From a virus (taxonomy: Duplodnaviria > Heunggongvirae > Uroviricota > Caudoviricetes), in the IMG/VR virus record IMGVR_UViG_3300028797_000098, positions 102,321 through 166,320 of that record: a stretch of 64,000 bases of DNA; one strand, given 5' to 3'. Both the position numbers and the translations under genes were made by a program. Positions within the stretch are counted from its first letter, which is position 1; each line of letters begins with the position of its first letter. The notes beneath the pieces were generated by a model that worked only from the letters and a program-made list of their open reading frames with translations, had not been told where the DNA came from and searched no databases. This document shows, in pieces, positions 3,763 through 47,573 of the stretch.

Positions 3763-5148
3763 ATGGTGAATATGACTAAGCCAGTAAAGAAAACCAGCAA
3801 AAAGCTGTATGACCAGCTATGCACGGAAATCGACCGTATTTTCGACCTTTACGGTAAGCCGAGCGACAACTGCATCGTTCTCGGCGTTTATTATAACGAT
3901 CGGGATAGCAGTTGGTCCCGTGGGCATAGTTGCATTTGCGAAGATTCGATAGCTTTGAGTAAAGCTGGCGATTTTCGGTATTTTAGTCCATATTATGACT
4001 GGGATTACGAATATAATCCATATGTGCGGCCAGTAATGCACGATGTTTCTGCGTTTACTACACTTGGAAAGCGTACGCACGATTCCCCTGACGAGGGCAT
4101 ATATGTCATTAGCCGAGGTCTCAGTGTTGGCCCGATCGGCAAGGAATCGCTCATGCCCAAGGACGTTGACCGCATCCCATGCAGTCCATTGATTGAAAAG
4201 CTTCGCGACTACTATGTCGATGCACGGAAGCTTGTTGAGATGATTAAGCCGCTGATGCATCAGGTTTGCGGTACTGGAAGATCCTATTGTGATAGTTCCA
4301 CTAACTGCTTCTGGCGTAACTACATTGTCGTTGGGCGGGACTATAATTTCCGGACGTTTACCATGCGTTATGATGCCATGGTGTCGAGTAGACACTTGGA
4401 TTTTGACTCCATGATTGTCGATAGAACATTGGGGGACTGTGGTCATGTCAAGCAGCATTTCACTCCGGCCAAAGAGTATGCTCCGACGGAAAATGTCGCC
4501 ATTCGTGAGCCTGTGCCGTATATCGAGTGGAAAGATTGGAAGAATCATGTCAGACGACTTGATACGCGTTATCTGCGCCGGGGTTGGCGTGCCGGCGTAA
4601 CAAACTTGGATGTGGTTCCGTTTGCCAGCATGAAGCTTAAAGAACTGCCAATATGCATGATTACCGACATTTTCATGCAGACGTATGACCGTGGAAGCGA
4701 TCCCAAATTATCAAATTTCTTCTACTACGAGCCTGAGAACAGAGACGAGGACATATACGCGCTCTGCCAGAACAGTGTCTATGAATTTGAATGTTATGGC
4801 AGGCAGCAGATTGGATTTAACTGGCATACCATGTGCTGCCTTCATGGCGATGTCAATTACCGCAAAGGTAAATCCAAGAAGGTGGTGGAAACTTACATCG
4901 GCGACATGACGCCAATCGAGTTTATCCAGTTCATCAATAAAACATTCTGGGACGAGTACAAGGAGTACACCGGTGACGTAGACTTGCTGTATTACGGGCT
5001 GGTGAAAAAGCTGGCACGACCGTCATATAAGAATTTTGGAAACTATGAGAACGGTACCCAGTATTGCTGGAACTCGATCCGCGCAAAGCCATGGTATCTC
5101 ACAATTGCGCAATATGATGAAGCCCAGGAAATCTTAAAAATAAGGTAA
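3763..5148 (+). CDS. hypothetical protein (461 aa)
   Basis: Long ORF; no family recognised. Confidence 0.8.
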   Translation: MVNMTKPVKKTSKKLYDQLCTEIDRIFDLYGKPSDNCIVLGVYYNDRDSSWSRGHSCICEDSIALSKAGDFRYFSPYYDWDYEYNPYVRPVMHDVSAFTTLGKRTHDSPDEGIYVISRGLSVGPIGKESLMPKDVDRIPCSPLIEKLRDYYVDARKLVEMIKPLMHQVCGTGRSYCDSSTNCFWRNYIVVGRDYNFRTFTMRYDAMVSSRHLDFDSMIVDRTLGDCGHVKQHFTPAKEYAPTENVAIREPVPYIEWKDWKNHVRRLDTRYLRRGWRAGVTNLDVVPFASMKLKELPICMITDIFMQTYDRGSDPKLSNFFYYEPENRDEDIYALCQNSVYEFECYGRQQIGFNWHTMCCLHGDVNYRKGKSKKVVETYIGDMTPIEFIQFINKTFWDEYKEYTGDVDLLYYGLVKKLARPSYKNFGNYENGTQYCWNSIRAKPWYLTIAQYDEAQEILKIR

Positions 5149-32803: not shown

Positions 32804-32839
32804 ATATCATATAAGCTGCAATAAATTTCACTTTTCTGG

Positions 32840-32868
32840 TTGCCAAAAGCAAAAACATTTGCTACATT
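32840..32868 (+). promoter_or_regulatory. sigma70-like promoter heading the RNA island
   Basis: TTGCCA-N17-TACATT followed by non-coding structured sequence. Confidence 0.85.
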
Positions 32869-32873
32869 TGGAA

Positions 32874-33284
32874 CAGCCGGGAAGAGCGGCGATTTGGCCG
32901 AGAGCCATATCAGAAGATTGACATGTCGGAAGCGTTTAAATAGTGCAGCGGTAGCACGGGTTCTTTATTCACCGTTTGTTTCCCGTGCTACCGAAAAGTT
33001 TAAAGGTGGCCGCCTGCAGCGGCATCGTAGTTCCTCGTCGTACCAAAAACATGGCATGGTCTCAATAGTAAAGAGTTTAAGGGTCACTTGTGGCCGTCGA
33101 ACTCTCCCCATGTACTGGGCGTGCAAACTGTGCGCCGACGTAACGACCTAAGCCCCTCGGCTGGGGGCGTTGTTCCTGGACTGACCGTAGTACGTTGGGA
33201 AGGGAGCGATCGTAGCAGTAGGAAGAGTCAGCCCCCCTCTGGGAGATCTTGCCGTCAAAGGCGCCGTGAGGCAAAGGGGCACAT
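32874..33284 (+). ncRNA. candidate ~410-nt structured ncRNA, family unknown
   Basis: Starts at the predicted TSS; contiguous hairpins including a 12-bp stem CGGTAGCACGGG/CCCGTGCTACCG (32949-32993). Confidence 0.55.
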
Positions 33285-33358
33285 CGGAGTTTAGCTCAGT
33301 CTGGTAGAGCATCTGCTTTGGGAGCAGAGGGTCGCTGGTTCGAATCCAGTTACTCCGA
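33285..33358 (+). tRNA. tRNA-Pro(UGG)
   Basis: Cloverleaf, TCTGC-TTTGGGA-GCAGA anticodon arm, GGTTCGAATCC; no encoded CCA. Confidence 0.95.
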
Positions 33359-33359
33359 C

Positions 33360-33676
33360 GAAATTAAACAAGAAGAGCGGTTTGAAATCGACCTTTGGTG
33401 CTCGCCCGGTATCGTGTGGCTGCAGCGCATGCCGGATAAAAAGGTTAAATGTGTCGAACAATTTGGAACAGTCTGGATGAACAATTAAGTGGTCCACATG
33501 CCTTTGTTTGAGGTCTTCAGTAATGAAGGCACTCCCGTTAGGGAGGGTGGCATGTGAGGGGTAGCGAATCGGGATTCCCCTTGTTCCGTTGAATGTCGCC
33601 AATTGGATGATTGCGTTGCTTGGATACTCATTCGATTGGTTTCTTGGGACGATAAGCAACTAGTCCCATGCTCTCT
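33360..33676 (+). ncRNA. candidate structured RNA segment
   Basis: CACATGCC/GGCATGTG multiloop (33495-33556) plus other hairpins; no credible ORF. Confidence 0.4.
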
Positions 33677-34036
33677 GGGGGTGCTTTGGTTTCGACTGGG
33701 CATCTGACCATGGAGGCCTCGCCCGAAGTTAGTCTGTGGCTTCGTAAAAACGGACTGAAAGAATAAATGCTAACAATGCATACGCCTGCCGCATGGCTGC
33801 CTAATCGGTAGTTATGCTGCTGCCTGGGACAAGCGAGAGGAATAAATCCCGGGACCAAGTGCATATCTCTCGAATCTAGGCCGGAGTTATGGATTTGCAT
33901 GGCCTACCTTACTTTAATCCAGAACCCTCACTGGTTAGATCACCTTGGGCAACAGGTCAGGGCCCGAAACGATTGATGGCGATATGGTTGAATTGGAAGG
34001 AAGTTTAGGACAGGGGTTCGAACCCCCTCACCTCCA
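33677..34036 (+). ncRNA. ssrA: tmRNA, tag ANNAYACRMAA* (33769-33804)
   Basis: GGGGGTG/CACCTCC acceptor with G3-U70, GGTTTCGAC, T-arm GGGGTTCGAACCCC, resume codon GCT after ATAAAT. Confidence 0.95.
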
Positions 34037-34043
34037 CGAATAG

Positions 34044-34133
34044 ATATGTGCTCGTAGGCCCAATAGGCTGACGGACACCCGGGAAGGTCCGTTGGAATTG
34101 ATCTGACTAGGGGCCGGGGAAACGGGCACATAT
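34044..34133 (+). ncRNA. candidate ~90-nt rod-shaped RNA
   Basis: 12-bp closing stem ATATGTGCTCGT/ACGGGCACATAT with nested GGCCC/GGGCC and ACGG..ACC/GGT.CCGT. Confidence 0.5.
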
Positions 34134-34145
34134 TGTTGAATTTAT

Positions 34146-35097
34146 GTCCTCCTGCCGGTAGGACCGCCCTTCAGCACGGGGTAGATTGCATATACGGTTA
34201 CGAGTGTTGCCGATGTTGCATGAAGGCAGTGGACCAAAGTATGACCTGAGGACCCATCTTGGTGGATGGGCGTGGCAAGATGCTTCGTAACAGATTCACA
34301 GGGTCAGAGGCTTCCCCTGACAAGGGGTTCTCGTCTAGCATCGGCTAAGGTAGACGAGCTCGTAAAATCGAGAGCACCCGGATTACTTAATTGTGGCTCA
34401 GGGTGTGCCGAGAGTTTCATTCTCCTGGTCCCTTCGTGGATACGGGTTGCACTGTGGACTGCGTACCAGTCACAGCAGCGTAAAGCGGTAGGCCGGCGCT
34501 ATAACCGGCAGTGTGTTTGAAAAACGCGGTCGTCTAAACGAGCAGGCGTTAATAGCGTCTGTGCTTAGGACCCCGGCGCCATCGTGGCCACGAATGTATC
34601 AAATAACGGATGTGGCAAACAGCGCGGGTGATATAGGTTCCGTCCCTATCCGCAACGCTTATGGAACGCCTTATTATTAAGTACGGTGTAAGGCCGGGCG
34701 GTCCTCCTCCCCGAGAAATCGCGGAGAATGGGACAGCCAAAGTAGGAAATTTTAAGATTCCGGGATGTTCTATAAAACGTCATCGGTGAAGATTGTTAGG
34801 GCACATCGTCTGGTTGAGGGTGAAAGCCTGTGGAGACCCACGCCTAACCGCACCGGTGACATCGAATTTAATATCCGCAGAACCAAACGCAGACTCCGGG
34901 TCTCGAGAAACTGGATATGTGTGGCCTACCGGCTAAGGTAGCGGAAAATAGTCGCTTGCTTACTATTGTACCTTGGACCCACCATGTACATGCGTACCGT
35001 GGCACAAGGCGCCTCTGGAAGCGAAAAATGCGAGAACGGCAAGCGGCAAGGGGTGGTTCTTCCCTGGTTTAGATCATGAACCACCCCGGCGCTTTTA
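34146..35097 (+). ncRNA. candidate ~950-nt large structured ncRNA (or array of RNAs), family unknown
   Basis: More than 20 near-contiguous hairpins and multiloops, no plausible ORF, ends in the 10-bp stem GGGGTGGTTC/GAACCACCCC followed by a short T run. Confidence 0.6.
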
Positions 35098-35098
35098 T

Positions 35099-35171
35099 TG
35101 ATACATAGCTCAGTTGGTAGAGCCCGCGACTGTTAATCGCGTTGTCCCTGGTTCGAGTCCAGGTGTATCAG
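35099..35171 (+). tRNA. tRNA-Asn(GUU)
   Basis: TGATACA/TGTATCA acceptor, CGCGA-CTGTTAA-TCGCG. Confidence 0.95.
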
Positions 35172-35181
35172 CTAAACCATC

Positions 35182-35335
35182 ACGTACCCGATGTCTGCCT
35201 ACTCGGAGTAGGAAGCATGTAGGGCCATTTGAATGCACCGGTATGCAGAGTAACGCCCTTGATGGTAAGGGTTCCGCTTCACCGGCTATATCCGCTCGAC
35301 TCGGATCATCTAGGTGACCGCAGATAAGGGTACGT
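35182..35335 (+). ncRNA. candidate ~155-nt closed RNA
   Basis: ACGTACCC/GGGTACGT plus TGTCTGC/GCAGATA closing stems enclosing hairpins. Confidence 0.5.
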
Positions 35336-35340
35336 CTTTT

Positions 35341-35413
35341 TCCGGAGTAGCTCAGTTGGTAGAGCAGTTGCCTTGTAAGCATCAGGTCGGGAGTTCGAGC
35401 CTCTCCTCCGGAG
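35341..35413 (+). tRNA. tRNA-Thr(UGU)
   Basis: TCCGGAG/CTCCGGA acceptor, loop CTTGTAA, GTTCGAG T-loop. Confidence 0.9.
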
Positions 35414-35443
35414 CTAGAATATAAACGCTGTTGAGTTTTTAGT

Positions 35444-35519
35444 TGCGGGTGAGTGGAACGTATATACCATTCGAGCCTCATAAGCTCCGAGATACTGGGT
35501 CAGACTCCCAGACCCGCTA
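35444..35519 (+). tRNA. atypical tRNA-Met(CAU), initiator-like
   Basis: GCGGGT/ACCCGC acceptor with 1:72 mismatch, loop CTCATAA, T-arm CTGGG-TCAGACT-CCCAG. Confidence 0.7.
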
Positions 35520-35572
35520 CTAAGAATTTGTACGTGTTAAAAGCAAAAACAATGTGTATATTCGGTCGATTT

Positions 35573-35779
35573 AAGTTCGATGTGTAACTTAATGACACCG
35601 TTCTAAACCGGGCACCATCGAAACTTTTTTGAGATAGAATAAGGTCTAAGCCGAAAGTCGCGGGTCTTTAGTTCCAAATGACTAGAACACCGACCGGGGC
35701 AACCCTCGTTGGAGGCTCTGGGTTAAAGTCCCAGTTGATCCGAATAGCGGCGCAAGCTGTCGAACGAGTAGGCTAGGTC
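35573..35779 (+). ncRNA. candidate multibranched RNA
   Basis: AGTTCGATG/CATCGAAACT hairpin and CTAAGCC/GGCTAGG multiloop with a GCAA-capped helix. Confidence 0.4.
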
Positions 35780-35855
35780 ACAGTGAGAAAGGACTGTCTT
35801 GAATTTGAAATTGTCGCAGTGCACGGCGACATACTGGACGCATGGAAGAAAAACA

Positions 35856-35937
35856 GGCTGCGTGGTGTAGTTGGAAGAACATACCCGCCTCGGGCAACTG
35901 ACGCGAGAGACGCTAGGTTCGAAACCTGCTGTAGCAC
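35856..35937 (+). ncRNA. tRNA-like RNA lacking an anticodon loop
   Basis: Acceptor GCTGCG/TGTAGC, D-arm GTGT-AGTTGGAAGA-ACAT, T-arm AGG-TTCGAAA-CCT, central arm CGC-C-TCGG-GCAA-CTGA-C-GCG. Confidence 0.55.
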
Positions 35938-36029
35938 ATTGGCCGGGTTACCGGTTGAAGGAGTATTCCGTGCGGGTGGCAACAAAGAGCCACACATGCA
36001 GCCCTCTGGCCAGGTAGGGAAATTTAAAC

Positions 36030-36103
36030 GGACCGGTAGCTCAGTTGGTCAGAGCGGCGGACTCATAACCCGTTGGTCCCTGGTTCAAGTCCAGGCCGGT
36101 CCA
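36030..36103 (+). tRNA. tRNA(CAU), probably Ile2 (lysidine type)
   Basis: GGACCGG/CCGGTCC-A acceptor resembles bacterial Ile2; loop CTCATAA. Confidence 0.85.
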
Positions 36104-36163
36104 CTTTTGCCCAACGGGCGCCCGCTGAACCATGGATAACATCTGGCGCATCCGGTAAGCAGA

Positions 36164-36250
36164 CGGCGCATAGGTATCGTCTAATTTCCATAGGACGCCT
36201 CCCTGTATTCGGGGGAAACCCGGTGTTGGAATCCGGAAACCGTGCGCCGA
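36164..36250 (+). ncRNA. degenerate tRNA-like RNA (8-nt anticodon loop, extended acceptor)
   Basis: CGGCGCA/TGCGCCG + GGT/ACC, D-like TCGTCTAA..TAGGACG, CCTCC-CTGTATTC-GGGGG, CCGG-TGTTGGAAT-CCGG. Confidence 0.5.
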
Positions 36251-36270
36251 TCACTTTTAATGGAGGAAAA

Positions 36271-36516
36271 ATGGCTGACAAAAACGAATTCCACAATGAC
36301 TTGGAAGTCTATTGCTCCGCTAAGGAACACAAGGGAATGGTCCTTGACCTTATAAGGGTGTACGGACCGACAGCCACGCTGAAGGATGTCCTTGCCAGCA
36401 TTAACTATCAGATGGACAAGTACGAGAACCTTTTGTTCATGCACAACCTGTTAGAGACCAAGAGTGTTGCGGGTGCCGTGCTGTCGTCCCTTAGCGATTT
36501 GAAGGAAACTGAATGA
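36271..36516 (+). CDS. hypothetical protein within the RNA island
   Basis: GGAGG upstream. Confidence 0.7.
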   Translation: MADKNEFHNDLEVYCSAKEHKGMVLDLIRVYGPTATLKDVLASINYQMDKYENLLFMHNLLETKSVAGAVLSSLSDLKETE

Positions 36517-36531
36517 ATGAATGACTAACAA

Positions 36532-36630
36532 ATGCGCATAGTGTAGCTTCCGTTGATCACGGGAGTCTCCTGCCCTGTCGATTCCGGGTCGGCCAAAGTC
36601 AGGCAATGAAGGTGGATGCCTGGTGCGCAT
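36532..36630 (+). ncRNA. candidate ~100-nt closed RNA
   Basis: ATGCGCA/TGCGCAT closing stem; inner TTCCG-TTGATCA-CGGGA hairpin. Confidence 0.4.
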
Positions 36631-36641
36631 GTTTTTAACGA

Positions 36642-36717
36642 GTCCGTGTCGTCAAGTTGGAATGGCCCCTCTCTCCTAAAGAGGTGTTTTACACAGGTTC
36701 GAGCCCTGTCACGGATA
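36642..36717 (+). tRNA. tRNA-Arg(CCU)
   Basis: GTCCGTG/CACGGAT acceptor, CCTCT-CTCCTAA-AGAGG, ACAGG-TTCGAGC-CCTGT. Confidence 0.9.
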
Positions 36718-36739
36718 CTAATATCGAATGGAGAACAAC

Positions 36740-36916
36740 ATGAAAGAGAAGAAGAAAGAATTTGTTGAGGAGACCCAGGAGCAGAAGGATGCTCGCTGGA
36801 AGAAACAGGCCAAGGCGGCAAAGAGTTTCGCGGTGTCTAGCGGCATTGACTTGAAGAAGGTAGCTCGCGAACGCCGCAATAACGAATGGGCCAAGAATAA
36901 GGATAATTGGTACTAA
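36740..36916 (+). CDS. small basic hypothetical protein
   Basis: GGAG upstream; K/E/R-rich. Confidence 0.55.
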   Translation: MKEKKKEFVEETQEQKDARWKKQAKAAKSFAVSSGIDLKKVARERRNNEWAKNKDNWY

Positions 36917-36962
36917 TAAGCTTGACGCTTCCGACAAGAGCTTTGCGTTCAATGTCCAGCAA

Positions 36963-36992
36963 GGCGTCCCGTTGCCACGGGGCGCCTTTTTT
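36963..36992 (+). terminator. intrinsic terminator closing the RNA island
   Basis: GGCGTCCCG-TTGCCA-CGGGGCGCC-TTTTTT. Confidence 0.8.
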
Positions 36993-37000
36993 GCTATATT
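36972..37000 (+). promoter_or_regulatory. sigma70-like promoter TTGCCA-N17-TATATT
   Basis: -35 is the loop of the terminator hairpin; ATG 6 nt downstream. Confidence 0.8.
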
Positions 37001-37006
37001 CCCAAC

Positions 37007-38405: not shown

Positions 38406-39901
38406 TGCTTGACGAAAATGAAATACAGTCCAAGCTGTCCTATGCGGCTAACTTGATGTCAAACCGGGCGCCCATTCTCCTTGGTTTCTATGTCATGCTC
38501 AACAAGCGCATGACTAGTGACAAGTCGATAACCATGCGAGCTGGATGCGATGCCGGAAAGCCGTTTATCGAGTACAGTGACTGGTTCGTGAACATGATGG
38601 AACCGTCCTTGCTCGGGGCGGTGCTGTATGCCAACTGCCTCAGGATAGCGTTGCACCATTGCGATACCCGTGTAAAGATGCCTGAAGCCATGTTCAGGCT
38701 TGCAAGTGACCTGGTGGTATATGAATACGCCCGGCATGTCGTCGATACTACCGTCGATGACAATTCGGCGATTGTTGGACAGTTGTTCCCGAGCATCTGG
38801 GCTTATTCCGACAAGTTTGCTGCAGCCGGGTTTGACCCTGTCAAGGACTTGACCCTTGAAAAGGTGTTCGACCTCCTTATGCAGAGCAAGGAGGATTCCG
38901 AAAATGAAACCGACGAAAAGAATCCGGACGGCAACCAGGAAGATAGCGGGAGCGAAGGCAACGGTGAACAAAGCGACAACGGTGACGAGGAAGGTGGCGA
39001 ACCGAACCACGATGGCGAATCTGGCGGGGAAGAAGGCGAGGATGATAAATCCCAGGAAGGCGGTGGAGGTTCCGGGGAATCCGATGACTTTGATGATGAC
39101 GATGCCGACTCCGAAAACGAAGGCGAATCGGGAAGCGGTGGCGACAATGCAGGGGATAGTGATGATGGGAAGAGCGAATCCTATCAGGCTATCCAGCAGA
39201 TGTTTGACCCGGAAAATTCGGCCCAGGACATGAAGGACTGGGGACAGGATTCTGACGCTTCCGACAATATCCGCGATGCCGCCTCGATTCAGTTTGCCAA
39301 TGGGCAAGGTGGTGCCAGTGGCCAGTTGGCCCTGGTTATCAAGGAAGCCAACCGCGTGCATGTAGATGCCGCTCGTCTGTTCAACATGTTCATGACTAGC
39401 AATTTCGGTGCATCGACCAGGCAGACGTGGTCCATGCCCAACCTGGCCCTGCGCCGGTTCGGCTCGATAGCCCCTGGCCATGTCCGCAAGAAGGACAAGC
39501 CGAAACTATTGTTTGCAGTTGACGTATCAGGCTCCATGCTTAGCATGAACCTGGTAAACCGGTGCTTTGCCGCAGTGAACAACTTCATCGGCGATGCCGC
39601 GCTTGACCTGTGCTATTGGGATGACGTATGTTCTGAAATCCTGCATGACCCTAAGGACGTATTCAATACGGACGTGTTCGGGGGTGGCATGACAAATCCG
39701 CAGTGCGTGCTTAAACGGCTTGAAATGGAACACAGGACTTATGATGGCATAGTGTTTCTTACCGACTGCGAGTTTGACTGGGAACGCCCACGCGAGGTCA
39801 ACCGTATCTGCGTGGTGAAAGCTGGAACCGGTGCCGGAATTGTACCTGCCTGGTGCAGGTGGACAATGGGAATCGACGACCTGTTGAAAAATGCAACTTA
39901 A
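38405..39901 (+). CDS. vWA domain / DUF2201-like putative metallopeptidase protein
   Basis: N-terminal helical domain, acidic Gly-rich linker, MIDAS-like AVDVSGSM, GGGMT, VFLTDCE; HExxH replaced by ANCLRIALHH. Confidence 0.8.
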   Translation: MLDENEIQSKLSYAANLMSNRAPILLGFYVMLNKRMTSDKSITMRAGCDAGKPFIEYSDWFVNMMEPSLLGAVLYANCLRIALHHCDTRVKMPEAMFRLASDLVVYEYARHVVDTTVDDNSAIVGQLFPSIWAYSDKFAAAGFDPVKDLTLEKVFDLLMQSKEDSENETDEKNPDGNQEDSGSEGNGEQSDNGDEEGGEPNHDGESGGEEGEDDKSQEGGGGSGESDDFDDDDADSENEGESGSGGDNAGDSDDGKSESYQAIQQMFDPENSAQDMKDWGQDSDASDNIRDAASIQFANGQGGASGQLALVIKEANRVHVDAARLFNMFMTSNFGASTRQTWSMPNLALRRFGSIAPGHVRKKDKPKLLFAVDVSGSMLSMNLVNRCFAAVNNFIGDAALDLCYWDDVCSEILHDPKDVFNTDVFGGGMTNPQCVLKRLEMEHRTYDGIVFLTDCEFDWERPREVNRICVVKAGTGAGIVPAWCRWTMGIDDLLKNAT

Positions 39902-43390: not shown

Positions 43391-44333
43391 AAGTACCCCA
43401 TTTTTCAAAGACGTTACCTTGGAAGGTAAAAAAGAAAACCGTCGCAAGATTCTTGTGATTGCTGGCGTTCATGGCAATGAACAGAATGCCGTGCTTGCTG
43501 CATACCGCCTGTATGAGTCGTTCGCACAGGCGACCGAGGATGCTTATAAGAATGAAAATGACATCAGGTTTATCATTGGTGTGAACAAGTGGGGACTCCT
43601 GACCAACAAGCGCGAGTTTGGCCAGCGTACAGACGTGTATCCGGACCCAATCCAAAAGGACAAGCCGATTGATTTCAACCGTGTATTCACCAAGAACCAT
43701 ATTACCGAACTGAACGAGGATGCCGCTGCGGTGCGCGATTTTATCCAGGAGGCTGTCGAAGGCGCTGACATTGTGATTGACGTGCACAATTCGCCGGCAT
43801 GCACCAACATGGTGCTGCTTAACAATGATGAATATGCGGCATCGACAATTAAGTTCATGAACGAATGCCACATGGATACCGACTACATGGTTTGCGAATC
43901 CCAGACCAGTACCATCAAGAAGTATGCCATTGAACAGGGCAAGGTTGGCTTTACTGTGGAACTTGGCGGCATGACGCTTGCTGGATTGCAGGATGGAACC
44001 ATCGTCCTTGACCAGTTTGCCTTCCTTAAGACGTTTATTTCTTGGATTGACCAGTTTATGCCTAAGTTTGAAAAGGGGGCACTGTTGCTTCCTGCACAAT
44101 TATGCATGCCTATTTATGCACATGCATACGGGCTTATTGATAAGGTGAATTTCCACCGATGCGCACCGCTGAAGAAGGGCGAAGTATTTGCTACCATGAT
44201 TACGGACAGCGACAACCCGGACGATGCCGAGTTTAAGGCTCCATGCGACGGCTTCCTTGTTGCATGCGAGGACCACCGTGCCGTGAAGCCTGGTGACGAA
44301 ATATTCTATTGGCAGCCGGTTGTAAACGGTTAG
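43383..44333 (+). CDS. succinylglutamate desuccinylase/aspartoacylase (peptidase M14-like) family hydrolase
   Basis: VIAGVHGNE, DFNRVF, IDVHNS, FTVELG, C-terminal APCDG..V..V.PGD module. Confidence 0.8.
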   Translation: MSKSTPFFKDVTLEGKKENRRKILVIAGVHGNEQNAVLAAYRLYESFAQATEDAYKNENDIRFIIGVNKWGLLTNKREFGQRTDVYPDPIQKDKPIDFNRVFTKNHITELNEDAAAVRDFIQEAVEGADIVIDVHNSPACTNMVLLNNDEYAASTIKFMNECHMDTDYMVCESQTSTIKKYAIEQGKVGFTVELGGMTLAGLQDGTIVLDQFAFLKTFISWIDQFMPKFEKGALLLPAQLCMPIYAHAYGLIDKVNFHRCAPLKKGEVFATMITDSDNPDDAEFKAPCDGFLVACEDHRAVKPGDEIFYWQPVVNG

Positions 44334-44341
44334 AGGTAAAA

Positions 44342-44884
44342 ATGGCCAAATTGCTTGCTCGAATGAAAATGGAATATGATACGCTGGAACGTATCGAAAA
44401 ACTGAGGACGCTATCCAAGGTTCTCAATGAACATAAGGATTGCATAATCAAGATAGTGGAGCTCGGTACGATTGGCGATGATCCAGTATTCTACATTCGT
44501 CCGGGCAAGCACGTTATCAATTATAACTCGAATACCCGTTATGCTGAAATGATAATCACCTCTAAGGGGATGCTGTCATATGAACAGTCAGTTATCGACC
44601 CAGGTGATCTTCCCCGAGTGAACGAGTGGAAGAAGTATTGCATTGAATGTGCCATGAGATATGAAATAACGGTCTATGATGAACTCCCGGATTCGGAAAT
44701 TCGCCATGCCGAACGCCCGTTCATTGAAGAAATAGTCGCCTTGCAGCGCAAGATTAAGCAAGTGCAGCGGGAATACCTCAAGGCAATGAAAATTACTCAG
44801 TGCATGGTATGGCCTAACGATCCCCAGACCAAGGAATGGCTAGAGAAACATCCCACGATATTACATGATTACAGGAAGGTGTAA
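44342..44884 (+). CDS. hypothetical protein
   Basis: GAGG upstream. Confidence 0.7.
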   Translation: MAKLLARMKMEYDTLERIEKLRTLSKVLNEHKDCIIKIVELGTIGDDPVFYIRPGKHVINYNSNTRYAEMIITSKGMLSYEQSVIDPGDLPRVNEWKKYCIECAMRYEITVYDELPDSEIRHAERPFIEEIVALQRKIKQVQREYLKAMKITQCMVWPNDPQTKEWLEKHPTILHDYRKV

Positions 44885-46141
44885 ATGTTTACCGAAATCG
44901 CATGCAACATCATCAAGGCCACCGACGACAAAGTGCCTGATATCGAGGCTGCAGAGTTTAACCTGAAAGGGAAGAAAGCCAACCTTGACCTTGTCCAGAA
45001 GGAATATGAACAAGCCAAGAAATCGCTTCATAAGGCTAAGATGGCGCAATACAATGCCCGAAAGAAGGTCGTGCAGGATTATATCGACAATGTCCTTATG
45101 AACATGCGGGCGCCTGAAACCTACGATCCAGACCGTGTGAAGAAGCTGCGCAGCATCCTGGCAAGCTATGACGAAAAGGACACCTATGTCAAGCGTCTTG
45201 AAATCCTGACCGCAATCCGCGAACTGCAACTAATTCTTACGGCATTCCCCATCGCCCGCCGAGTGGGCAACATTGTCCGCGAATGGACAGGGAACAAGGA
45301 TGTCGTTATCAGCGAGGATGGCAGTAAAGTCAGCGTAGGTAAAAATGTCATCATGCGGACAGTGGAACAACTGGACCAGAGTGACAGTTTCATATCCAGC
45401 ATATGTCGAGAATACAAGTATAGACACCTGTTGCAATTCTATGGAAGCGAAGCACATTATTCCGGTACTCCAATGGGTTATATTCATGAATTCTGGGAAA
45501 GCAGGTGCCTTGCCCTGCCACTTGATCCTGACATAGTGATTGGTGAAGCCCCGTCAGATGAAGTTGATTTTAACCGGTCAAAATATTCCCGTGCTTTCGA
45601 TTGGTGTAAAAATACTGACAAGTATTCAATAAGGGATATTGGCACTGAATTGTTCAAGGTTGACGGGAGTCGTTTTTCTGGCATGGTTGCCATGTTAGCA
45701 GAGTGTGACCCCAGTGTTGCCGAAAGCACAGTATCCGACATTGACTGGGCAAGCAACTTCATTGTGCTGAATCCGTGCCTTTTTACTGTCAATGAGGTAA
45801 TGAGTAATTACGGACGGTTTACACAGGCCCACTATAAGGGTTGCACGGACATGTATCATAATTCCAAGTCTCACCTTGATTTTTACATCAACCGCATCAA
45901 CGAGAAATTGCAGGAATGTGCCCCCAAGACTGTCAAGGATATCAAGTTCGATGCGGACTTGATGGCGGTCACCTGGCGCGATCCGTATGACAAGGACATG
46001 GCGTTTGACCCGGACACATGTGAAATGCAGCATCCGTCGCAGACGGTCCATAAGCTGGATGTGCGAAATGTTATATTGTACTATGTCGTTATGTATGCCT
46101 ACAAGCACATACCTGGCATGAAGAAGCCGGACGAGGTTTGA
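44885..46141 (+). CDS. hypothetical protein
   Basis: Long ORF, N-terminal coiled coil. Confidence 0.8.
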   Translation: MFTEIACNIIKATDDKVPDIEAAEFNLKGKKANLDLVQKEYEQAKKSLHKAKMAQYNARKKVVQDYIDNVLMNMRAPETYDPDRVKKLRSILASYDEKDTYVKRLEILTAIRELQLILTAFPIARRVGNIVREWTGNKDVVISEDGSKVSVGKNVIMRTVEQLDQSDSFISSICREYKYRHLLQFYGSEAHYSGTPMGYIHEFWESRCLALPLDPDIVIGEAPSDEVDFNRSKYSRAFDWCKNTDKYSIRDIGTELFKVDGSRFSGMVAMLAECDPSVAESTVSDIDWASNFIVLNPCLFTVNEVMSNYGRFTQAHYKGCTDMYHNSKSHLDFYINRINEKLQECAPKTVKDIKFDADLMAVTWRDPYDKDMAFDPDTCEMQHPSQTVHKLDVRNVILYYVVMYAYKHIPGMKKPDEV

Positions 46142-46162
46142 CAATAATTCCCGTTAACATAC

Positions 46163-46191
46163 AAAAAGCACCGGTGAGAACCGGTGCTTTT
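46163..46191. terminator. bidirectional intrinsic terminator
   Basis: AAAAA-GCACCGGT-GAGA-ACCGGTGC-TTTT between convergent genes. Confidence 0.85.
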
Positions 46192-46212
46192 CCGTTTAAT
46201 GTGTAGTATCGA

Positions 46213-47151
46213 CTAGCGGCACTTGCGTTCAACTGCGTTGTAACAGATGGCGCGGATTGCATCGTCGGAGAGGTGGTCGGAGTTGCCGAACACGCTTTCG
46301 AAGCATGCGCGGAGGTCGGAAGTTGCGATGGATTCCTCGGCAACATTGTCCGAGAGAGCCTTCTTTGCAAAGTTCCATGCCTTCTTTGCGATGCGGCCTG
46401 GACGGGTCGGGTCGTACTTCATTGCATCCTTGAACTTGCTCCAGAACCCTGGCTTCTTTTCTTCCTTCTTTGGTGCATTGCCATTCTGTTCAGGCTTGGC
46501 TTCGGCCTTGGCATCGGGCTTCTGATTGGCTTCTTCCGTCTGTTTGGCTTCAGCCTTCTTCTTTTCCTCGGCTGCCTTCTTTTCGTTGTTCCGGTCGTCA
46601 ATCCACTTCTTCTTGTCAGCGTCGTACTTTGCACGCTTCATTTCAGGCGTGATGAAACCACCGGCACCGCGCTCACGCTTGACCTTCTTCTTGGATTCGT
46701 CAGCCCATACGAGGCCGCCTTCTTCACTGTCAAGGTATTCCTCGATAGTCGGACGGAGAGTGTTTTCAACCCATGCGTCGAGTTCGCCCGGGGCGATTTC
46801 GGCATATTCTTCCAGGGTGTGTTCGGCTGTCTTGACCCTGCGCTTCATGCCGTTGAGCTGCTTGCCCCACTGCTTGTTGCGGGCTTCGACATCGGAGTTG
46901 TAGGCATTCTTCTCATCCTGGCTCATCTGCTTGCTTGCCGGGCCATTATGCGTACGCATGGAAGGGTCCTTGGTCCTGGAAATCTCGGCCATGTTACGGT
47001 CAAAGATGCCTTCAAGCTGGGCACTTCCCGCAAACACCTGGCGGGCTTCCTGGATGAACTGTTTTTCCCGTTCAGTAGTGGCAACACTTTCAAGACGGGC
47101 TGTGAAATCAAGAAAACGTTTGCATTTTTCGTTGGTCATGGAGAACTCCAT
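46213..47151 (-). CDS. hypothetical charged low-complexity protein
   Basis: Isolated minus-strand ORF, K/E/A-rich; TATAAGCTAT upstream. Confidence 0.75.
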   Translation of the reverse strand: MEFSMTNEKCKRFLDFTARLESVATTEREKQFIQEARQVFAGSAQLEGIFDRNMAEISRTKDPSMRTHNGPASKQMSQDEKNAYNSDVEARNKQWGKQLNGMKRRVKTAEHTLEEYAEIAPGELDAWVENTLRPTIEEYLDSEEGGLVWADESKKKVKRERGAGGFITPEMKRAKYDADKKKWIDDRNNEKKAAEEKKKAEAKQTEEANQKPDAKAEAKPEQNGNAPKKEEKKPGFWSKFKDAMKYDPTRPGRIAKKAWNFAKKALSDNVAEESIATSDLRACFESVFGNSDHLSDDAIRAICYNAVERKCR

Positions 47152-47196
47152 TTTAATGTTTATTCGCGAATATCTATAGCTTATAAGTTTTCGTTA

Positions 47197-47225
47197 TTGC
47201 CATTACAGTCCGTTTTTGCTATATT
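47197..47225 (+). promoter_or_regulatory. sigma70-like promoter TTGCCA-N17-TATATT
   Basis: Consensus; ATG 6 nt downstream. Confidence 0.85.
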
Positions 47226-47231
47226 CAGCAT

Positions 47232-47573
47232 ATGACAAGAGAGAATTCCAATAAAAGCTTGGTTGCCGACAACACCAGGCTGCAACATGAAGTAGATAAG
47301 CTTTCCAGGGCGCTCCTGGAAGTAAAGCACGGCAAGTCATTCTACATGGTTTCAAGCGAAACGTCCTTCATCAAGGACGGCGTTTACCGCACATCGCACA
47401 CTCAGCAGTTCTATTGCCGCAAGAAGGATGCCATCATGTTCATGAAGTCGGCGATTGACGAACTCCCGAATGACACTGAAATAAAAGTTAACTGGTCATC
47501 CGCGACATCGGTAACATGCACCGGTGAAAACATCTTCTTTAACTGCAAAGTGGAAAAGATTAACCCGATTTAA
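47232..47573 (+). CDS. hypothetical protein (leaderless candidate)
   Basis: ATG 6 nt after the -10 box. Confidence 0.7.
   Translation: MTRENSNKSLVADNTRLQHEVDKLSRALLEVKHGKSFYMVSSETSFIKDGVYRTSHTQQFYCRKKDAIMFMKSAIDELPNDTEIKVNWSSATSVTCTGENIFFNCKVEKINPI

Follow-up and report, generated by a model that had tools for sequence, protein, structure and literature searches.

The window analysed here, a 64,000-nucleotide stretch of DNA, belongs to a virus record of 203,111 bases that carries 42 tRNA/tmRNA genes. The record derives from a rumen jumbo phage, which is present in sequencing runs of the bovine gut. Positions 32875-36990 of the window form an almost gene-free island, which comprises tRNA-Pro(UGG) (33285-33359), tmRNA, tRNA-Asn, -Thr, -Met and -Arg and two small genes, and which possesses a single promoter (32839-32868) and an intrinsic terminator (36961-36995) that closes the operon and overlaps the next promoter. 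The promoter, the terminator, tRNA-Pro and the parts of the leader, orphan RNA and trailer described below lie on the plus strand; rRNA genes are absent from the window. The loop of the terminator hairpin (36961-37006) holds the -35 box of the following promoter, and the hairpin sequence is 82% complementary to 33257-33278 over 22 nt, which is probably due to chance. The two small genes (36271-36516 and 36728-36916) are without a Pfam family, and the one of 55-62 aa, kept in all related phages, marks the end of the RNA operon.

Twelve close homologues of the locus were collected (L001, L035 and L043-L052). The RNA operon promoter (-35 TTGCCA, 17 nt, extended -10 TG-C-TACATT) is conserved in 10 homologues and belongs to a set of 28 consensus copies across the genome; we take it to resemble the Fibrobacter type. 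Genome-wide, nearly half of these consensus promoters (13/28) give leaderless mRNAs with the ATG exactly 6 nt behind the -10 box, and since the leaderless genes start at this distance, the RNA operon would start at about 32875. An initial annotation of this stretch had placed the beginning of a structured RNA at the start site of a promoter, at 32874; the promoter is genuine and the two start positions differ by a single base. RNA starting at the promoter is a gene-order feature of this phage lineage.

The first 62 nt (32875-32936) are an rRNA-operon-style leader at the head of a tRNA/tmRNA transcript. It begins with a 5'-terminal hairpin (32875-32890), which is 100% paired in 10 homologues and combines an invariant GCCG/CGGC core with a variable loop, and continues with a boxB-like hairpin (32891-32911) that has two compensated pairs and a CG(A/T)GA pentaloop, the latter recurring on different stems in 9 other leaders. 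Immediately 3' of this hairpin lies a boxA-like 12-mer (32912-32923), and the position of boxC is taken by a strand (32924-32936) complementary to the far end of the operon. Leaders of rRNA operons have the order boxB-boxA-boxC (PMC10250234), and in B. subtilis a small hairpin precedes a divergent NusB-binding boxA (PMC13753749); the phage leader resembles them in its promoter-proximal hairpin followed by a 12-mer ending in TT(A/G)ACA, and in a leader strand whose pairing partner lies at the distal end of an untranslated transcript. The word at 32912-32923 has one further copy in the genome, heading a cluster of 33 tRNAs. As a pattern, pentaloop plus 12-mer occurs nine times in 7 of 9 related phage records (reversed control: 0), every copy being located 3' of a hairpin and at or near the beginning of a tRNA block.

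The 12-mer is identical to the boxA of E. coli at 6/12 and to that of B. subtilis at 7/12 positions, and the C described as critical in E. coli (10.1101/091223) is missing from it; its putative boxA identity therefore rests on its position. The sequence might instead serve a phage-specific purpose next to the leader-trailer helix, as a signal for processing or protein binding, and not be a Nus-binding boxA, as half of its letters differ from described boxA, which may not be those of the host. We regard this as rather doubtful, since the 12-mer is placed at the start of untranslated operons, between an upstream hairpin and the downstream leader strand, and since its TT(A/G)ACA end follows rrn boxA down to the A/G variation. 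The rrn antitermination complex comprises NusA, NusB, NusE, NusG, SuhB and S4. The phages encode neither NusB nor NusG, so that the elongation factors would be those of the host, and loading of host Nus factors at the 12-mer appears fairly probable from its placement.

The complement of the leader strand is a 13-bp match at 36924-36936, downstream of the last tRNA, with the terminator 25 nt further on; relatives show compensatory changes. Of 12 leaders, 9 have such a trailer of 11-20 bp, located immediately 3' of the last or nearly last tRNA; a tenth, in L046, contains one mismatch, and two leaders have no trailer within 14 kb. Shuffled leaders find 8-13 Watson-Crick pairs anywhere in 9-14 kb. 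An exact second copy of the 13-nt trailer lies at 39254-39266 inside a 498-aa gene, probably as a coincidence of coding sequence. Because of this perfect second copy, a 13-mer alone may be coincidental, and the case for the helix rests on position and covariation, not on length. The two strands have changed together among the window, L001, G001 and G003, and it is this covariation, at the level of sequence, that shows the leader-trailer pairing. The helix is probably an RNase III site. A second leader of like type, outside the window (G000 44329-47337; L119), has a 17-bp trailer and encloses 31 tRNA genes.

Unlike an rrn leader, the phage leader encloses tRNAs, tmRNA and orphan RNAs, its 12-mer agrees with described boxA at no more than the positions given above, and its helix measures 11-20 bp versus 25-40. 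By analogy, it would work like an rrn leader, yet it frames no rRNA. The literature searched contained no paper on boxA-type leaders with closing helices on phage tRNA operons, and none joining phage tRNA genes, boxA, leader and RNase III.

Between the leader and the following RNA lies a spacer hairpin of variable sequence (32949-32993), which may belong to either. Its 12-bp stem, already recognised in the initial annotation, gains support from compensation of 6 of the 12 pairs, and its loop ranges from 21 to 60 nt. The TTTAAA/TTTAAA pair described as flanking this stem is not conserved; its first copy adjoins the leader-trailer strand.

Positions 33001-33282 are a conserved orphan RNA of ~280 nt that belongs to no catalogued family (hereafter the core). 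Its main domain (33001-33232) contains a multiloop with two dispensable arms (33072-33105 and 33142-33174), both of which are missing from the shorter forms described below. The first element of the domain is a hairpin (33009-33023), which has compensatory changes between the long and the short forms, and two copies of the motif ATCGTAG lie at 33024 and 33209; the part shared with the short forms is ATCGTA in the first copy and TCGTAG in the second. The multiloop is closed by a long-range helix (33034-33043/33190-33199) with one-sided changes only, and includes a helix with a GTAAA loop region (33054-33059/33108-33113), compensated in L044, and a hairpin (33118-33136), compensated in L111. The 3' domain (33233-33282) consists of a compensated outer C/G helix, a GGGAG-type loop and an optional GNRA hairpin. 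RNAalifold proposed to pair 33037-33043 with 33139-33147; this pairing is disrupted in L044, and the helix with 33190-33199 was adopted instead. The loop of 33009-33023 may form a pseudoknot with 33218-33222, which is compatible with the window, L053 and L111 and mismatched in L072 and L117; in most copies, the GGGAG loop may pair with pyrimidines behind the first ATCGTAG.

Covariation was assessed with ten full-length copies, on a structure of 92 pairs that had been checked by hand. Of the cells, 98.9% pair across the 10 homologues, and 12 pairs have changed on both sides, a number reached in 0 of 500 shuffles (a shuffle count on related copies and not a probability), while slid controls gave 1-3. 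Identity to the window amounts to 89-92% in the core, as against 52-62% in the 200 nt upstream, and to 67-100% in the adjacent tRNA-Pro. Single-nucleotide indels are numerous among the homologues, which excludes a protein-coding frame; the longest open stretch covers 73-140 codons. Covariation, conservation of the core relative to its upstream region and indels without regard to a frame together argue that the structure is real and under selection. Comparison of homologues, a check proposed in the initial annotation, thus supports the RNA much more strongly than does folding energy, another such check, which is only marginally better than in shuffled controls (z -1.74, with 3 of 100 shuffles as good; -1.45 in a second estimate). 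For the separate parts, z lies between -0.5 and -1.8, with +0.3 for the 3' domain, and the fold derived from covariation lies 20 kcal/mol above the computed energy minimum.

The complementary pairs listed at the outset are all present where they had been placed, and differ in their evolutionary support. Variation in homologues backs the GAGTTT/GAACTC arm and the outer CCCC/GGGG helix, and GCCGC/GCGGC is compensated in short forms. The AACGAC-GCCCC arm is invariant and absent from short forms. Besides TTTAAA/TTTAAA, two further pairs are unsupported: CTGAC/GTCAG, invariant in close relatives, is lost in 3 of 4 short forms, and distant forms possess a GNRA hairpin (33263-33272) in place of TTGCC/GGCAA.

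Short forms of the core, 165-200 nt in length, are found in other jumbo phages, far from any promoter. The relationship was recovered in both directions: a covariance model built from long forms only (33007-33284) detected a 196-nt form in a 355-kb phage (E 1e-11), and a model built from four short forms only (L053, L072, L111 and L117) detected the window at 33001-33275 (E 1e-10). Of 9 records, 5 contain the core, as a single copy in each genome, and 4 lack it, including 2 of 4 near-complete ones, and in L006 it is interrupted by an IS605-like miniature element (identified by eye from its ends), while tRNA-Pro is kept; it is therefore dispensable. BLAST searches of cultured phages and plasmids returned only the tRNA or no match, flanking proteins as queries retrieved no viral loci, and a search of bacterial genomes with the hairpin pattern gave 23 matches, a number below the chance estimate, none of which reaches the rest of the RNA.

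These distributions bear on the unity of the locus. The short forms lack the leader, that of G005 being situated 7.2 kb inside a tRNA operon, and the first 62 nt and the 3' 280 nt each recur without the other, so that the region is not one 410-nt gene. The ~410-nt structured RNA of the initial annotation accordingly stands as structured, non-coding and transcribed, but not as a unit. A single RNA gene with a single fold from the start site to tRNA-Pro would account for the preservation of the whole span in 10 close relatives, for one RNA contig spanning 32887-33280 and for computed folds that close the RNA via 32919-32923/33227-33231. However, this closing pair uses letters of the boxA-like 12-mer and never varies, the contig can equally derive from a precursor, and leader and core are found apart in other phages, which makes a single gene quite unlikely. 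We favour, as on balance the probable reading, two parts: an rrn-like leader with a closing helix, and a mobile core RNA that may act in trans.

The 3' boundary of the core coincides with a tRNA. Its last helix ends at 33280, conservation ends at 33282, strains diverge at 33283 and tRNA-Pro begins at 33285, in agreement with the earlier proposal that the RNA ends right at this gene. In 13 of 13 complete loci, close or intermediate, as well as in L072 and L117, the next tRNA lies 1-11 nt further on; short forms end 2-5 nt before tRNA-Pro, -Thr or -Glu, and L111 has no canonical tRNA behind its short form. 5' cleavage of tRNA-Pro by RNase P would set the 3' end of the orphan RNA, and release of the core in this manner is likely. 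The region is present in RNA libraries from three studies. In run X13, from a near-identical strain, a contig covers 32887-33280 at depth 40 and tmRNA has a depth of 30, with the upstream genes uncovered; contigs from runs X17 and X20 stop at 33277 and 33280, while a DNA run (X5) continues through tRNA-Pro. The RNA contigs of the three studies thus end 4-7 nt before tRNA-Pro. These stops point weakly to a 3' end at the RNase P site, as such contigs show neither ends nor strand and the divergence at 33283 could also break them; missing RNA cover on parts of the island counts as no evidence.

The constant proximity of a tRNA could also mean that the core is nothing but a folded cis element 5' of this tRNA, which it would protect, pace or present for cleavage by RNase P. 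We judge this unlikely. The downstream tRNA is not constant: behind the same upstream RNA, at least five unrelated alleles of tRNA-Pro(UGG) have been exchanged, one of them with an 11-nt gap, other loci have Thr or Glu, and L111 has no canonical tRNA at all. Moreover, most phage tRNAs lack such a leader, L006 retains tRNA-Pro despite its broken core, and the unpaired motifs of the core are better conserved than the tRNA. The exchange of alleles suggests pressure on tRNA-Pro itself.

Searches for known families gave negative results throughout. Rfam returned no match at E<=10 for 32840-33284 (including SRP, 6S, group I/II introns, HDV-like and other small ribozymes and HEARO), none for the short forms, and nothing for the orphan RNA at gathering and permissive thresholds. 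Together with a targeted search for RNase P RNA (RF00010), which revealed neither a model match nor the P4 pseudoknot, this bears out the initial view that the RNA is not RNase P, SRP or an intron. The cobalamin riboswitch (RF00174) was not detected in any of 5 carriers at E<=10, with positive controls, and look-alike words are due to chance. A model of the conserved 3' domain of GOLLD (RF02032) had no match at E<=10 in the phage's own genome, and ROOL (RF03087) gave no match either, although the control of the targeted search was likewise unmatched; the RNA is also far below the ~580 nt of ROOL.

With GOLLD and ROOL (PMC12286853, PMC5737381), the core nevertheless shares the character of a multi-junction non-coding RNA with optional domains beside phage tRNA genes, and with ROOL also the rumen habitat. 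It might accordingly be a small RNA-only oligomer of this kind, in which repeats and the GNRA and GGGAG loops make contacts between copies: the phage tRNA-island context is common to all (PMC12286853, PMC5737381), and the internal repeats permit swapped pairings. Against this stand a size of 165-280 nt versus ~580 to >800 nt (a third to a half of theirs), a lack of similarity in sequence or to either model, and covariation that shows no intermolecular pair, so that an oligomer seems improbable.

A derivation from tRNA, with the core as a tRNA mimic or a decoy for anticodon nucleases, is very unlikely. It would fit the D-loop-like GTTGGTAG of the short forms, their arm with an A-rich loop like that of tRNA-Leu(UAA), a CCA behind a 7-bp hairpin, the frequent swapping of neighbouring tRNA alleles, and the adjoining Ro60 and Y-RNA-like genes in one relative. 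The long form in the window, however, lacks the CCA and the loop, alignment scores against 264 phage tRNAs fall within the shuffled range, and neither a tRNA profile nor the Rfam tRNA model matched. A single phage has the Y-RNA-like elements and a Ro60 (TROVE) gene immediately behind its short form (L111 1932-2188; G005 171529-172125), i.e. 1 of 5 carriers, and Rfam gave no match to Y RNA (YrlA). The tRNA region of phage T4 encodes two non-tRNA stable RNAs that are cut from the tRNA precursor by host nucleases. The core is likewise a non-tRNA RNA within a phage tRNA precursor; unlike the T4 stable RNAs, it is larger, is set in an rrn-type frame and shows no sequence likeness to them (no match in cultured phages).

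Under the favoured two-part reading, the phage would transcribe 32875-36990 as a single untranslated precursor of five tRNAs, tmRNA and several orphan RNAs, with host RNA polymerase starting at the host-type promoter. The hairpin and the boxA-like 12-mer would load the Nus factors that serve rRNA elongation in the host and thereby let 4 kb of ribosome-free RNA escape premature termination and fold. Pairing of 32924-32936 with 36924-36936 would then close the precursor in the manner of the leader-trailer helix of 16S rRNA. The first cargo would be the 280-nt core (33001-33282), a mobile module of this phage group, whose 3' end would be freed by the RNase P cut of pre-tRNA-Pro. Acting in trans, the core may bind, as a platform or decoy, a host protein that acts on stable RNA or translation, its working parts being the invariant unpaired motifs, i.e. 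the two ATCGTAG copies, GTAAA, the AAACT loop and the GGGAG loop. This role is put forward tentatively, from anatomy and context: invariant unpaired motifs, dispensable arms, indifference to the tRNA downstream and co-expression with tRNAs and tmRNA. More speculative, and in our opinion somewhat improbable, is that the core represents a new class of trans-acting phage RNA with a biochemical activity of its own, made from an operon that hijacks host rRNA elongation and RNase III maturation; if true, that activity could consist, e.g., in disarming an RNA-targeting defence of the host or in steering translation.

The core adds a covariation-supported RNA family, from a phage group without a cultured relative, whose minimal natural form of 165 nt is amenable to probing and structure solution. 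In such phages, a framing like that of rRNA precursors appears to be the way in which long untranslated transcripts are made. The dispensability of the RNA in some relatives tempers its weight.

Further RNA elements populate the island and its counterparts. The spacer between tRNA-Pro and tmRNA (33360-33676) contains several hairpins and has an RNA contig of its own (33484-33646); its modules come and go among relatives. Between tmRNA and tRNA-Asn, ~1 kb of conserved non-coding sequence (34040-35098) is represented by RNA contigs and has no Rfam match, and its 3' domain has the word CC-TCTGG(G/A)AG in common with the 3' domain of the orphan RNA. Two elements (35440-35520 and 35655-35745) look tRNA-like by eye and were called neither by ARAGORN nor by Rfam. 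In relatives, HEARO copies, some of them ORF-less, and IS605-like ends have been inserted into the RNA island (L006 667-895, 2436-2679 and 3295-3520; L035 2737-2965; L006 1-378; L053 1-29), with IscB, TnpB and IS607 elements nearby, and the island of L046 contains a group I intron match (4117-4381; 55 bits). Finally, more distant phages share another uncatalogued structured RNA of several hundred bases, which precedes tRNA genes (L013 700-1510; L117 upstream of 4750 on the minus strand).
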